Origin: an uncultured bacterium
Lineage (GTDB): Bacteria; Patescibacteriota; Minisyncoccia; Phycocordibacterales; Phycocordibacteraceae
Reading direction: 5' to 3'
Assembly: GCA_947085985.1 (NCBI GenBank)
Contig: CAMTYL010000003.1
Location: forward strand, 81,826 to 135,238
DNA: 53,413 bases
The translations under genes were made by a program, and so were the position numbers. This document shows, in pieces, positions 6,841 through 30,100 of this stretch (its first letter is position 1; the number at the start of each line of letters is the position of its first letter). The notes below the pieces were generated by a model, which was not told the DNA's origin, ran no database searches, and saw only the letters and a list, made by a program, of their open reading frames with translations.

Positions 6841-6883
6841 TAGCGAAGCAAACAGAAAAACCCCTTTCGGGGTTCTTCAATTT

Positions 6884-7124
6884 GCTCCGCGGGCAGGGAC
6901 GTGAGTACACTTATCGCCCGCGACTCTCTGTCTCGTCGTCACTCGCCAGAGGTCTGCACCACATGAGTACTTCCAATTTCTAATCGCTGCACTCAAGAAA
7001 TTTAGGTCGGGCACCACCTCGCTGGTTCTGCCTGCTAGCAGAACCTTGCTCCGGTGTTCGATCCCTGCCCGCGGAGGAAATAGTAAAGGCCCAATGCTTA
7101 CGCATCAGGCCTAACTATTTCGAG
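6884..7124. repeat. tRNA-Asn 3' trailer with inverted and direct copies of the tRNA 3' end
   Basis: 7056-7076 is the exact reverse complement of 7125-7145 (21 nt); 6884-6899 is identical to 7124-7139 (16 nt). Confidence 0.9.
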
Positions 7125-7162
7125 CTCCGCGGGCAGGGATCGAACCTGCGACCAAGCGATTA

Positions 7163-7716
7163 CACGTATCTTATCGTTTCCGAAAAGGGTGGACTATATC
7201 ATCGCCCGTTCCTGTGAACTGGGGCGGGAGGCGCTTCCGATCGCTTTCGCGACAGTACTCTCTTGCGAGATAGTCTCTGAACCTTCAATCCGATTGCTCG
7301 GAAAGCTTGGCTGCTGATTACCCTCGTCTTTCTCGTTAGGGCTTCCAGCAATTCACCTCCTTTTCATCTCCGAATTACTTCGGGGAGCTGCGTAATGTTG
7401 TCGTGCACTTCAGAGTGACAGTTTGCACATAGGAGAACACATTTCTCCAGTTCCACGAGCGTCTTTTTCCACGACCTTGTTATCCCTTTCATGGAGAGAC
7501 CGAAGTCCTTCTTAGTTGGGTCAAGATGATGGAAGACCATTGCCCGTTTACACCGATCATATCCACAAATGATGCATTTTCCGCCACCGTACTCTAAGGC
7601 CATTTCGCGAAGCTTCTTTCGTCGTTTCGCAACCGCCTTCTTTAAGTACTCAGCACGATCAGCATAGGTTCGTGTCTCTGGCATACTTTACTGAGTATAC
7701 TATTGACACACGTACC
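7163..7716 (-). mobile_element. Group I intron (554 nt) at anticodon position 35/36
   Basis: 5' exon ends in U and intron ends in G; P AATTGCTGGAA, Q AATCAGCAG, R TTCAGAGACTA, S GATATAGTCC; P3 GGAGGTG/CGCCTCC. Confidence 0.92.
7364..7684 (-). CDS. Intron-encoded HNH endonuclease
   Basis: CIICGY...FHHLDP...CVLLCANCHSEVH; lies inside the intron. Confidence 0.88.
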   Translation of the reverse strand: MPETRTYADRAEYLKKAVAKRRKKLREMALEYGGGKCIICGYDRCKRAMVFHHLDPTKKDFGLSMKGITRSWKKTLVELEKCVLLCANCHSEVHDNITQLPEVIRR

Positions 7717-7887
7717 ACAGTCGCTTGCTCTACCACTGAGCTACCGCGGAATGTCCCGCCCTCACCCGAGAGCATGAGCGGTACTTGGGTATTCTAGCGT
7801 ATTTTCTGGAGGAGGCAATTGTAGCCTGTTGACCAGGACCAACTAGAGGGGTAGGCTCCGGGTAGGAAATCATCGGGGAGACCGTGC

Positions 7888-28039: not shown

Positions 28040-29308
28040 ATGAAAACATTCTTCAAACTCCTCGTCGCCTCTTTCCTCGCAGTACTTGCACGCCTGATTA
28101 TCGCCAAGTACAAGCCGATTGTGGTGATGATTACGGGGAGTGTGGGGAAGACGTCTACCAAGGACGCAGTAGCCGCTGCACTTTCGGAGCGCTACTATTT
28201 GCGCGCAAGTGAGAAAAGTTACAACAGTGAGTTTGGCGTTCCGCTCACTATCATTGGTGCAAAGAATCCGTGGGAAAACCCCAGTGCGTGGCTTCGTGTG
28301 ATTCAAGAAGCGCTTGCACTCATTTTGCTTCCCAGTCACTATCCGCAATTGCTGGTGCTTGAAGTGGGAGCAGACAGTCCCGGTGACTTGGCGCGCATTT
28401 TGGCAATGTGCACCCCAGACGCCGTGGTGGTCACAATGCTGCCCGAGATTCCAGTACATGTGGAAGCGTATGCGAGTCCCCAAGCCGTGCGAGACGAAGA
28501 GTTCCAGCCAGCGTACGCATTGCCTGCTGGCTGTCCGCTTATCATTTCAGCGGACGACGTGCATGCGCGCAAAATGGCTGCGCGCCTCTCGGCAAATGTT
28601 GTCACGGTAGGATACGCAGAGGACGCCAACCTGCGCATCACTGACCCTGTGTTTACGCCAAAGGGAATGAAGGCAACGGTGCACACCTGCGGTAAAACGT
28701 ACGAGATAGTAGCAAAACAGGCACTTGGGCGCACCCAGCTCTACGCTCCCTGTATGGCCCTTTCACTTTCTGGCATGCTCCACATGACCACCGACGAGGC
28801 ACTCAAGGGTCTTGAAAGCTACGTGCCTCCGGCAGGACGTGCTCGTGTTCTTTCTGGGTTGCATGGGTCCGTACTCATTGACGACTCCTATAACGCGTCT
28901 CCGGCGGCGGTAGAGGAGGCCCTCCAGGGCATGTCGCTGGTTCCGGGTGCGAGGCGCATTGTGGCCATTGGCGACATGCTAGAGCTCGGTCGCTACTCCA
29001 TGGCAGAGCACGAGAGGATTGGTCGCTCGGTAGCAAAGCATGCGGACATGGTGGTTGCGGTGGGGGAGCGCTCGGTGGCACTACGCGAAGCAGCAATACA
29101 GGCAGGCATACAAGAAAAGGACGCACTCGGATTTGCAAACAGTAGGGAAGCCGCCACGGCTCTTAAGGAATTAATACGTGAGGGCGATGTGGTGCTCGTG
29201 AAGGGCTCGCAGAGTATCCGTATGGAGCGAGTGGTAGAGGCGCTTCTCGCGGACCCTGCAGACGCGAGACTTTTGGTACGACAGGATAGGGAGTGGAAGA
29301 GGAGGTAG
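28040..29308 (+). CDS. murF: UDP-MurNAc-tripeptide--D-Ala-D-Ala ligase
   Basis: ITGSVGKTSTK, IDDSYNASP, GDMLELG and VLVKGS motifs. Confidence 0.92.
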   Translation: MKTFFKLLVASFLAVLARLIIAKYKPIVVMITGSVGKTSTKDAVAAALSERYYLRASEKSYNSEFGVPLTIIGAKNPWENPSAWLRVIQEALALILLPSHYPQLLVLEVGADSPGDLARILAMCTPDAVVVTMLPEIPVHVEAYASPQAVRDEEFQPAYALPAGCPLIISADDVHARKMAARLSANVVTVGYAEDANLRITDPVFTPKGMKATVHTCGKTYEIVAKQALGRTQLYAPCMALSLSGMLHMTTDEALKGLESYVPPAGRARVLSGLHGSVLIDDSYNASPAAVEEALQGMSLVPGARRIVAIGDMLELGRYSMAEHERIGRSVAKHADMVVAVGERSVALREAAIQAGIQEKDALGFANSREAATALKELIREGDVVLVKGSQSIRMERVVEALLADPADARLLVRQDREWKRR

Positions 29309-29369
29309 GACTACAAACGCAAAGACACAGAAGTTCGCTTTCGGGCTGGCCGATTTCAATGCAAATTCA

Positions 29370-29549
29370 GACATCACGGGGAACCGGCGATTACGCCTCT
29401 CGGTCCTTACAGGACCTGTACACCTTGCGGATGATTTGTCGCAAAACTTCAAATCATGCTCGCAAGGTCTTCGATTCCCCGACGCAGCTTTCCCAAAGCC
29501 GCTTGAGGTCACAACGCAGAAAGCCCCTTGCGGGGCGTTTCTGGCGTTG
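29370..29549. repeat. tRNA-Glu 3' trailer with inverted and direct copies of the tRNA 3' end
   Basis: Inverted TTCGATTCCCCG (29470-29481) plus TGAGGTCACAACGC (29504-29517); direct GACATCACGGGGAACCG (29370-29386), 15/17 match to 29551-29567. Confidence 0.85.
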
Positions 29550-29621
29550 TGACCTCACGGGGAATCGAACCCCGATTTGATCCGTGAGAGGGATCTGTCC
29601 TAACCGTTAGACGATGAGGCC
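29550..29621 (-). tRNA. tRNA-Glu(CTC)
   Basis: GGCCTCATCGTCTAACGGTTAGGACAGATCCCTCTCACGGATCAAATCGGGGTTCGATTCCCCGTGAGGTCA cloverleaf. Confidence 0.95.
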
Positions 29622-29758
29622 GTGCATGTTTTATACCGTATAACCGCAAACTGCGCCAGAGGGATTGTGGGGGAATGTTGACTATATGTACAAAGTAGGT
29701 TATACTATATAGTACGTGCTTCGCTTCAATTCAGAGACAATCACAAAGGGGGTACTAG

Positions 29759-30100
29759 ATGGCTGTAAAGATTGAGGGCCGTCAGGCCCAAACGGAACTA
29801 GACCTTCGGGTCGCTGTCCGTATGTTTCATCCGGGCGAGTTGTTCCTCGTCCGATTCGCGGTTGTTGCGGGTGTTCCGCACCTGGAGCAACTTGGCGACT
29901 TGGCGGAGGAGGGACAGCTTAAGATTCTTGAATGCCCCGGAAAGCCAGAACCAGTCCTCGGCGTCCTGGATTCTGGCACCTGGCGCGAGCCTCGTGCTCG
30001 CACTCGCCTGATCCAGATCGGCGCCACCTTCAACTGGGAGACATTCACCAAGCTCTTCCTGGACAAAAAGCTTATAGAGGCGATTACTCCATACGAGTAG
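29759..30100 (+). CDS. Hypothetical protein (orphan cassette)
   Basis: TTGACT-17-TATACT at 29678-29706; AAGGGGG SD; hairpins downstream. Confidence 0.75.
   Translation: MAVKIEGRQAQTELDLRVAVRMFHPGELFLVRFAVVAGVPHLEQLGDLAEEGQLKILECPGKPEPVLGVLDSGTWREPRARTRLIQIGATFNWETFTKLFLDKKLIEAITPYE

Follow-up and report, generated by a model that had tools for sequence, protein, structure and literature searches.

Cassettes with antisense and sense copies of tRNA 3' ends behind tRNA genes of an uncultured patescibacterium and its relatives

The DNA downstream of the tRNA-Glu(CTC) gene in a 53,413-nucleotide stretch of contig CAMTYL010000003.1 from an uncultured member of the Patescibacteriota (the whole stretch is referred to as the window) raises the question of what is represented by a trailer of some 180 bases, all parts of which lie on the minus strand and which repeats the end of the tRNA in front of it twice, once in antisense and once in sense orientation. 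A sequence-only reading of the window had described this tripartite arrangement, equated it with the trailer of tRNA-Asn, and listed tRNA maturation control, decoy att sites and an insertion footprint among its possible roles. The analysis presented here confirms this feature, which proves to be a general one with a strong structure. We tentatively regard it as a cassette, i.e., a non-autonomous integrative element whose folded single strand may mimic the duplex 3' end of a tRNA gene, and we would give this interpretation somewhat less than an even chance of being correct.

The copies in the Glu cassette have their source in the last 20 nt of the tRNA, which consist of the T loop, the 3' strands of the T and acceptor stems, and the discriminator; the CCA end is not encoded. 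The hairpin abutting the tRNA end, designated hp1 (coordinates of all parts in Table 1), forms the middle of a long palindrome according to its computed fold, and its stem is extended to 26 bp by the first antisense segment, acc'. This segment is the reverse complement of the acceptor 3' strand (GACCTCA) and not a copy of the 5' strand (GGCCTCA). The antisense copy is then split exactly at the junction of acceptor and T stem by a hairpin insert, hpA, the stem of which covaries among the copies, before it continues with a second segment, T', terminating in a near-universal TCGAA. Behind this follow the core hairpins P2, P3 and P4, with compensatory changes in all of the 9+4+2 pairs of P2, and finally the direct copy. 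All the parts described before were found on the minus strand, either exactly where they had been placed or within 1-3 nt. When the last 20 nt of the tRNA and the trailer are folded as single-stranded DNA, a free energy of -70.3 kcal/mol is obtained, compared to -30.1 +/- 3.8 kcal/mol for shuffled sequences (z = -10.5), none of 200 shuffles being as good.

An assembly artefact, against which the sequence-only reading had cautioned, was not borne out, because the contigs of four public runs cover the trailer without any difference: they match positions 28900-29577 with 0 differences, and one of them spans this whole stretch, the comparison being one of contigs rather than reads, from runs that belong to two studies and possibly include the source samples of the assembly. 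In three of the four runs, contigs end inside the tRNA-Glu gene. In runs X4 and X5, lower-depth contigs agree with the last 30 nt of tRNA-Glu (29548-29577), beyond which another terminator follows; a co-occurring relative is their probable source. A promoter and terminator scan of positions 29200-29800 revealed no terminator-like site, with hp1 failing the T-run criterion, and the sole promoter-like site was recorded on the plus strand (29678-29706). Rfam has no family for the cassette: a scan of the window returned tRNA and group I intron matches only, an E-value scan of positions 29250-29700 gave only sub-threshold matches at chance level, and six related loci yielded only rRNA and tRNA.

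To what extent the arrangement recurs was surveyed at the 37 tRNA genes recognized by ARAGORN in this 753-kb genome, which is 95.8% complete (G000; relatives are given by similar handles where needed). The layout occurs 3' of 17 of these genes and of an additional, intron-split tRNA-Asn gene, always downstream and always in the orientation of the tRNA. An antisense match to the tRNA's own 3' end is found within 100 nt downstream at 17 of the 37 genes, 14 of which also show a direct match of at least 10 nt, missing for Lys-CTT, Leu-TAG and Arg-TCT; the 400 nt upstream of the 37 tRNAs, serving as control, contain one inverted and one direct match of 9 nt each, and a single one of the 37 genes shows something similar to the layout on that side. 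If no more than one mismatch is allowed, the 13 variable nt are found again as a direct copy in 8 of 37 cognate versus 1 of 1332 non-cognate pairs, and a split antisense copy in 8 of 37 versus 8 of 1332, in a pair test that is lenient and in which end offsets of ARAGORN add mismatches. These figures, together with the distribution of the Glu-type core among relatives described below, uphold the earlier proposal of a general layout rather than a chance resemblance. The possibility that other tRNAs lack the layout, named at the time as the finding that would speak against it, is true of 20 of the 37 genes, yet 17 and tRNA-Asn carry it; the layout is therefore common, not universal.

The units are non-coding and 81-236 nt in length, and in 14 of the 18 cassettes of this genome (that of tRNA-Asn counted among the 18) the antisense copy is divided by a hairpin of 22-25 nt at the same acceptor/T junction. 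The smallest unit, behind tRNA-Pro, consists of nothing but a split antisense copy, a short linker, a terminal hairpin and the direct copy. Two classes of cores were found, to which 17 of the 18 cassettes are assigned, the short Pro unit matching neither profile and being left unclassed: class 1 is represented behind Glu, Val, Lys-TTT, Trp, Ser-GGA and Leu-TAA, and class 2 behind Ala, Lys-CTT, Gly-TCC, Gly-GCC, Arg-GCG, Arg-TCT, Leu-GAG, His, Cys, Leu-TAG and Asn as well as in a second Trp unit. The Glu and Asn trailers are accordingly alike in their general layout, as had been claimed, and are not the same trailer: the antisense copy of Asn is unsplit, without the 22-nt insert, and joined to a class-2 core, whereas that of Glu is split and joined to a class-1 core. 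The tRNA-Asn(GTT) gene itself was missed by ARAGORN because of a group I intron of about 590 nt, which splits the anticodon loop after anticodon position 35 and bears an HNH-like endonuclease open reading frame (ORF) in its 5' part.

When the genome was searched with profiles of the two cores, every strong match was located 3' of a tRNA, and two weak extra matches were obtained. One of these is the right-hand half of a cassette with a degenerate tRNA-Gly end, 1.6 kb past the Gly-TCC cassette; the intervening DNA contains a second block of hp1, antisense copy, hpA and T', followed by an ORF of 484 aa. This second Gly-TCC unit is a cassette in which the core is replaced by a gene; the product of the latter (P0001) gave no match in Pfam or NCBIfam. 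The other weak match is a degenerate class-2 unit with a direct copy resembling the 3' end of tRNA-Gln(CTG), which has no tRNA gene upstream and is separated by about 1 kb from a gene for a reverse transcriptase. Another class-1 cassette, in G005, is located about 650 nt from a reverse transcriptase gene.

Whether the cassettes are maintained as folded strands can be judged from 51 distinct class-1 elements, in which all 36 pairs (36/36) show changes on both sides. Paired cells amount to 95.9% in these elements, versus 66.5% after column shuffling and 34-47% with the partners slid, in an alignment fitted to the covariance model, which favours the pairing score. On the tRNA-sense strand of the core, 59 G-U combinations stand against 16 of A-C, and the fold is better for sense-strand than for antisense-strand RNA (-65.9 versus -55.0 kcal/mol). 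Covariation, G-U excess and the better sense fold together show that one strand is therefore folded, and folded under selection. The motif GCGAAGC, known for its special stability as a DNA mini-hairpin and treated here as a lead, occurs at hairpin tips six times in sense and never in antisense orientation within 4 kb of cassettes, compared to 0.16 per kb and strand genome-wide.

Selection for folding of the tRNA-sense strand, with its G-U bias and 36 covarying pairs, would also be expected if the cassette acted as RNA, either in cis or as a small RNA. Read-through from the promoter of the tRNA would then give a structured trailer, which might control 3' maturation or termination, its antisense segment pairing with the 3' half of the tRNA or with the distal sense copy, or might form a tRNA-like minihelix of acceptor and T stem, a possible substrate of RNase P, RNase Z or CCA-adding enzymes in which hpA would replace the body of the tRNA. 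The position of hpA agrees with the latter idea, since in a real tRNA this is the very point at which the 5' strand departs from the coaxial helix of acceptor and T stem; the copy behind tRNA-Ala, in addition, retains a G opposite U70. Moreover, the sole terminator-like hairpin comes after the cassette behind Gly-TCC and Pro of this genome, and behind Arg-TCG of G005 a GC-rich hairpin with a T run, read by eye, follows the direct copy; these units would be co-transcribed with their tRNAs. By the rule of a stem plus T run, terminator-like hairpins stand 3' of the direct copy at 6 of 18 loci, whereas hp1 itself is terminator-like at 13 of 18 and thus precedes the antisense copy. The occurrence of the same tRNA with or without the element among congeners also speaks against an RNA function, as does the lack of any matching Rfam family.

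The copies themselves provide a further criterion. In 47 elements from many genomes, chosen beforehand to have no more than three mismatches per antisense segment, 864 of 940 positions of the antisense copy pair with the cognate tRNA, and 490 of 616 with the direct copy. The mismatches lack the G-U bias of the core, with 16 G-U versus 14 A-C in the former comparison and 24 versus 23 in the latter, and the matched segments look like neutrally decaying or recopied copies, not like helices tolerating wobble pairs. The distal direct copy is the more decayed one and is truncated in Val, Lys-CTT and the Arg-TCT element of G013, while the antisense copy there still matches the tRNA. Where the acceptor stem of the tRNA contains a G-U pair, acc' is mostly the complement of the 3' strand (Glu and both Trp), Ala and the Glu element of G025 keeping a G opposite the U. 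Control of tRNA maturation, as suggested by the sequence-only reading, is left unsupported by the terminator-like hp1 in front of the antisense copy, by the dispensability of the element among relatives and by the unbiased mismatches. We consider an action as RNA unlikely on balance, and do not place it lower because the G-U bias of the core fits RNA as well as DNA. An origin by retrotransposition via a tRNA primer-binding site was considered separately and excluded, because beyond the discriminator the antisense copy agrees with the genome rather than with an added CCA.

A BLAST search with the Glu locus against 60 relatives detected tRNA-Glu nearly everywhere and the trailer in some of them. 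The cassette is present 3' of tRNA-Glu(CTC) in G000, G017, G025 and G005, the last with a truncated unit, and it is followed by the end of a murF-like gene in G025, the one filled relative in which murF was examined. In G023 and G024, tRNA-Glu, with or without a terminator, leads to a murF-like gene end, the cassette being missing, and the tRNA-Glu(CTC) loci of G022 and G018, considered irrespective of synteny, are likewise devoid of it. The orthologous tRNA-Glu site is thus filled or empty among congeners, i.e., it shows a presence/absence polymorphism. The match follows the tRNA even where the latter has diverged: in G005, which has a T arm of AGAG/CTCT, the antisense copy CAGAGAATCGAA has changed along with it. 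Units also accrete in tandem, as observed in G017 (class 1 followed by class 2, at Glu), in G031 and at Trp of G000. Of the roles considered at first, the insertion footprint comes nearest to these filled and empty sites, the tandem units and the cargo-bearing unit.

A covariance model built from 18 class-1 elements matches in 33 of the order's 61 genomes and as often as 23 times in a single one, related genomes being non-independent samples in all such counts; apart from G000, these are 16 of the 36 other congeners and 16 of 24 genomes from other families. None of 150 other genomes across the phylum was matched, under stricter filters and with few candidates scored, and the class-1 core seems to be confined to the order. 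For 23 of 34 core matches, located in 30 loci, ARAGORN found a tRNA within 260 nt upstream; most of the matches without one are at contig ends, behind masked sequence or in outer units of arrays. At least 18 tRNA species are served by the related core. Note that class-1 modules also occur within tRNA-like sequences on the minus strand of two loci, L094:1480-1700 (G054) and L078 (G045), near a second class-1 match; one of these cases follows a 5S rRNA and consists of a tRNA-Gly-like 5' end, extra hairpins, class-1 P2/P3, a T arm and an acceptor end. Neither ARAGORN, with introns allowed, nor Rfam called a tRNA at these two loci. At three further loci (L072, L085 and L091 of G007, G057 and G030), cassettes without an adjoining tRNA are preceded, about 100-200 nt upstream, by the motif GGAGCGTACGA…CCACCACGCGC-N4-GCGCGTGCGA and then a promoter-like AGGTT…TA-A-T stretch, the motif being without a match in Rfam.

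According to another reading, the cassettes would be scars left by ordinary integrase-borne islands or prophages formerly present at these tRNA genes, the direct copy being an old attR site and the remainder leftover island ends. The direct repeat spans the block from the T loop to the tRNA end, which is said to be the classic identity block of tRNA-integrating elements; in G007, a block of 5.6 kb separates tRNA-Glu from a Glu-matched cassette, and serine recombinase genes are present in G000. A conserved and covarying hairpin architecture serving at least 18 tRNA species in 33 genomes is not expected of scars, however, and neither the antisense copy nor its split at a fixed position finds an explanation; the units are small and intact and recur with the same order of parts. 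This origin is therefore very doubtful in our opinion.

The degree of identity between cores behind different tRNAs bears on their history. Across core plus hpA, the Ser-GGA and Ser-GCT elements of G025 are 94% identical, the Glu and Trp elements of G017 89.5%, and the Arg-TCG, Arg-TCT, Arg-GCG and Tyr elements of four genomes about 89%, values to be compared with the 94.7% between the orthologous Arg-TCG elements of G014 and G005. Cores have therefore recently moved or been converted between loci, with the matched segments staying specific for each tRNA. The Glu and Trp elements of G017 have P2-P4 in common and differ in hp1 and hpA, which do not follow the core, so the units are mosaics whose left and right modules differ in their history. 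In the G017 array, a terminator homologous to that of G005 sits after the direct copy of unit 1, and acc' of unit 2 fits the present tRNA end; on the basis of a single substitution, an insertion immediately behind the tRNA, in which the distal copy would be brought along by the unit, is thereby slightly favoured.

Such cores also bear on the proposal that the arrangement is a functionless by-product of replication errors, arising when a nascent strand snaps back at a palindromic terminator, copies the tRNA end in reverse and switches back at the self-complementary T-loop word TTCGAA, which would result in duplication, inversion and duplication, with small hairpin modules accumulating later. 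The antisense copy is indeed continuous with the hp1 stem and stops at TCGAA, the direct copy begins in the T loop, and the duplication takes in the terminator at Leu-TAG of G000 and Glu of G031; the unbiased mismatches of the copies agree as well. A hairpin module of about 55 nt (…TTCTTGAGCGAAGCGATTAGAA…GTACTCC…GGGGTG) forms a nested part of four cassettes (Lys-CTT, Asn, Ser-GGA and Leu-TAG) and recurs outside them, at eight or more places of the genome in total. What such errors leave unexplained are the fixed place of hpA, the two conserved core classes, their covariation and strand-biased G-U pairs, and the 89-94% identity of cores behind different tRNAs, which makes this explanation a very unlikely one.

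The tentatively preferred interpretation as an integrative cassette would involve the following steps. A unit comprises, counted from the tRNA 3' end, a variable hp1, the antisense copy, a modular core of class 1 or 2 and a sense copy extending from T-loop nt 59 to the discriminator. Its working form would be a folded single strand, most likely tRNA-sense-strand DNA, in which the tRNA-end copy and the antisense copy would pair to a long hairpin imitating the duplex tRNA 3' end. A recombinase or transposase provided in trans might then swap strands between this mimic and a tRNA gene, near the T loop or the 3' end, and the displaced copy would decay after insertion. The sense copy would keep the tRNA intact, and insertion would therefore be harmless. 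The anatomy, the match to each tRNA, the selected fold of the tRNA-sense strand, the filled and empty sites, the tandem accretion, the cargo-bearing unit and the near-identical cores are established by the results above; the exchange of strands, the involvement of an enzyme and the origin of the matched copies are the components of this scheme that we infer. In a different and quite unlikely version, the split antisense segment (8 + 12 nt around hpA) would serve as a programmable guide of the folded cassette strand, either DNA or RNA, recognizing the 3' end of a tRNA gene by pairing, and the target would serve as template for both matched copies in the course of insertion. A conceivable route would be snap-back synthesis at the hairpin beside the tRNA with a strand switch at the self-complementary T-loop word TTCGAA. 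If this were true, one core family could colonize any tRNA gene without an element-encoded enzyme, and the cassettes would represent a target-templated, guide-bearing mobile element of an undescribed kind.

Several observations weigh against an integrative cassette. No enzyme could be linked to the cassettes: they contain no integrase, transposase or reverse transcriptase genes, and neither the RAYT-like nor the reverse transcriptase genes encoded elsewhere track with class-1 matches. RAYT-like HUH genes, which reach up to 10 copies in some congeners, are present in 25 of the 33 genomes with class-1 matches versus 16 of the 28 without, and their flanks share with the cassettes only chance-level matches of 10-15 nt. 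Genes of the RVT_1 family are found in 12 of 33 versus 13 of 28 genomes and are missing in G053 and G049, which possess 23 and 18 class-1 matches, respectively; a reverse transcriptase may nevertheless have acted in the past or in trans. The sole tyrosine recombinase of G000 is of the Xer type and encoded at C4:136.5 kb, far from the listed cassettes. Three serine recombinase genes are present in G000, two of them on small low-GC contigs, and the IS110 DEDD recombinase (PF01548) was not found in this 95.8% complete genome. Excision or circle junctions were not seen in the contigs examined, which are contigs and not reads. A plain site-specific mechanism leaves unexplained how both the antisense and the sense copy come to match a new tRNA, gene conversion of the cores may be a live alternative to their transposition, and an RNA would account for the G-U bias and the loops of GNRA type just as well as single-stranded DNA would.

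Table 1. Location of the cassette parts, related units and candidate genes. Plain coordinates refer to the window, those with C3 or C4 to contigs of this genome (G000).
Feature	Location	Strand	Description
tRNA-Glu(CTC) gene	29550-29621	-	ARAGORN; Rfam RF00005 tRNA, 59.3 bits
Glu hp1 hairpin, 38 nt	29512-29549	-	16-bp stem, two bulged C, GCAA loop; abuts tRNA end directly
Glu acc'	29504-29511	-	TGACCTCA; 8/8 reverse complement of acceptor 3' strand and discriminator
Glu hpA insert, 22-nt hairpin	29482-29503	-	8-bp stem with one G-T, GGG loop
Glu T'	29470-29481	-	CGGGGAATCGAA; 12/12 reverse complement of T loop and T-stem 3' strand
Glu P2 long hairpin, class-1 core	29423-29467	-	CCTTGCG...CGCAAGG and inner stem; begins 2 nt past TCGAA
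Glu P3 hairpin	29402-29416	-	Loop (C)TGTAA(G) conserved
Glu P4 terminal hairpin	29386-29397	-	GGCG-TAAT-CGCC, then GG; common to class 1 and class 2
Glu direct copy (DR)	29370-29383	-	TTCCCCGTGATGTC; 13/14 identity to tRNA nt 59-72; G to T in acceptor part
tRNA-Asn(GTT) gene, intron-split	7125-7752	-	Intron matches Rfam RF00028 at 7170-7421, 71 bits
Sister cassette 3' of tRNA-Asn(GTT)	6884-7124	-	Class-2 core
Asn hp1	7077-7124	-
Asn antisense copy	7057-7076	-	Unsplit, 20/20
Asn class-2 core	6901-7056	-	With nested 55-nt module
Asn direct copy, 16 nt	6884-6899	-
Terminator beyond Asn cassette	6850-6883	-
Cargo ORF P0001, 484 aa	G000:C4:122858-124309 (L057:2359-3810)	-	Between T' and right-hand hairpins
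Degenerate class-2 unit, Gln-like	G000:C3:410255-410520 (L058)
Reverse transcriptase gene, 331 aa	G000:C3:411497-412492 (L058)		RVT_1, E 9e-25
55-nt module outside cassettes	G000:C3:363256-363313, C3:324012-324071, C4:74661-74717, C4:132392-132457		In other structured non-coding stretches
RAYT-like HUH (Y1) homologues, 256 and 240 aa	G000:C3:297941-298708 and C4:225696-226418		51.9 and 43.2 bits, respectively (NCBIfam cut-off 80)

The cassette family is apparently undescribed, as no published account of such cassettes turned up in the part of the literature open to full-text searches. If the cassettes are mobile, they would represent a new way of colonizing tRNA genes in the ultra-small and largely uncultured bacteria of this phylum, by tiny, gene-less elements that are matched to their target by an antisense and a sense copy and are able to carry genes, as in the case of the 484-aa ORF. 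This would explain "tRNA scars" and variable gene slots beside tRNA clusters, provide a marker of recent gene flow, and point to a recombination activity by which a folded imitation of the end of a tRNA gene is recognized. Should they act as RNA instead, roughly half of this organism's tRNA genes would possess an unrecognized cis element. In either case, the cassettes are common and have a strong structure without being annotated, they cause confusion in assembly, and ARAGORN and Rfam scans report nothing across them.

A comparison with known systems indicates that none of the families compared agrees with the cassettes in every respect. Among the less close analogues may be counted the casposons, the REPIN/RAYT and IS200/IS605 systems, and the tRNA-integrating islands and CIMEs. 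Casposons, which cause a duplication of 14-15 bp where they insert at the 3' end of a tRNA gene, resemble the cassettes in repeat length and target, whereas the cassettes lack terminal inverted repeats of the casposon type, and no Cas1 was noticed, although no search aimed at it was made. At the tyrT locus of E. coli, the last 19 nt of the tRNA are repeated downstream of the gene; to our knowledge, neither these repeats nor those of casposons are accompanied by an antisense copy or a conserved hairpin core. The REP/BIME/REPIN-RAYT elements and the PATEs derived from IS200/IS605 are likewise non-autonomous hairpins of one strand, and HUH (Y1) homologues are encoded in G000. However, REP elements are not matched to neighbouring genes, their GTAG-type head was not seen in the cassettes, and RAYT-like genes are neither flanked by cassettes nor do they co-occur with them, as RAYTs do with their REPs. 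The IS200/IS605 elements choose their targets by DNA-DNA pairing with an internal guide of 4-5 nt, while the guide of a cassette would have 20 nt.

The tRNA islands, CIMEs and tycheposons share with the cassettes a direct repeat that covers the 3' part of the tRNA, beginning in the T loop, as well as tandem accretion and polymorphism among relatives. A bounding repeat from nt 59 to the discriminator is indeed found at most cassettes, being degenerate at several. In contrast to these islands, the cassettes are tiny, contain an antisense copy of the target and employ one related core for at least 18 tRNA species, and no integrase gene was found within the elements, the units being non-coding and P0001 lacking any family match.

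The nearest analogues appear to be the cassettes of integrons with their attC sites and the folded attP sites of the CTX type. Integron cassettes differ in several details: no IntI-type integrase gene or attI site adjoins a cassette array, the single Xer-type gene of this genome being located away from the cassettes; most cassette units are structured non-coding DNA; and the hairpin arms copy a tRNA end and not the R and L boxes. The consensus of the attC R''/R' boxes, RYYYAAC / GTTRRRY, is not reproduced by the hairpin base, which is composed of the T loop and its complement (GTTCGAT/A..., the T loop reading GTTCGAA), with C rather than a purine as fourth base. In CTX-phage type IMEX elements, a folded single-stranded attP site mimics dif and the XerCD recombinase of the host is used, whereas the target of the cassettes would be the 3' ends of many tRNA genes instead of dif, and the cassettes are small and without phage genes. 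As to the likenesses, sense and antisense copies of the target would pair in a single strand to imitate a duplex target in both the CTX type and the cassettes, neither of which would need an integrase of its own, and tandem units occur in both. With attC, the cassettes share a site set by the fold of one strand, with structure kept rather than sequence, in the form of an imperfect hairpin with an extrahelical element, and units arranged head-to-tail at a single fixed position of the chromosome, some of them bearing a promoterless gene and others none. These two systems may be considered nearest because the folding of one strand, the mimicry of a target and the tandem units are common to them and the tRNA-matched cassettes.

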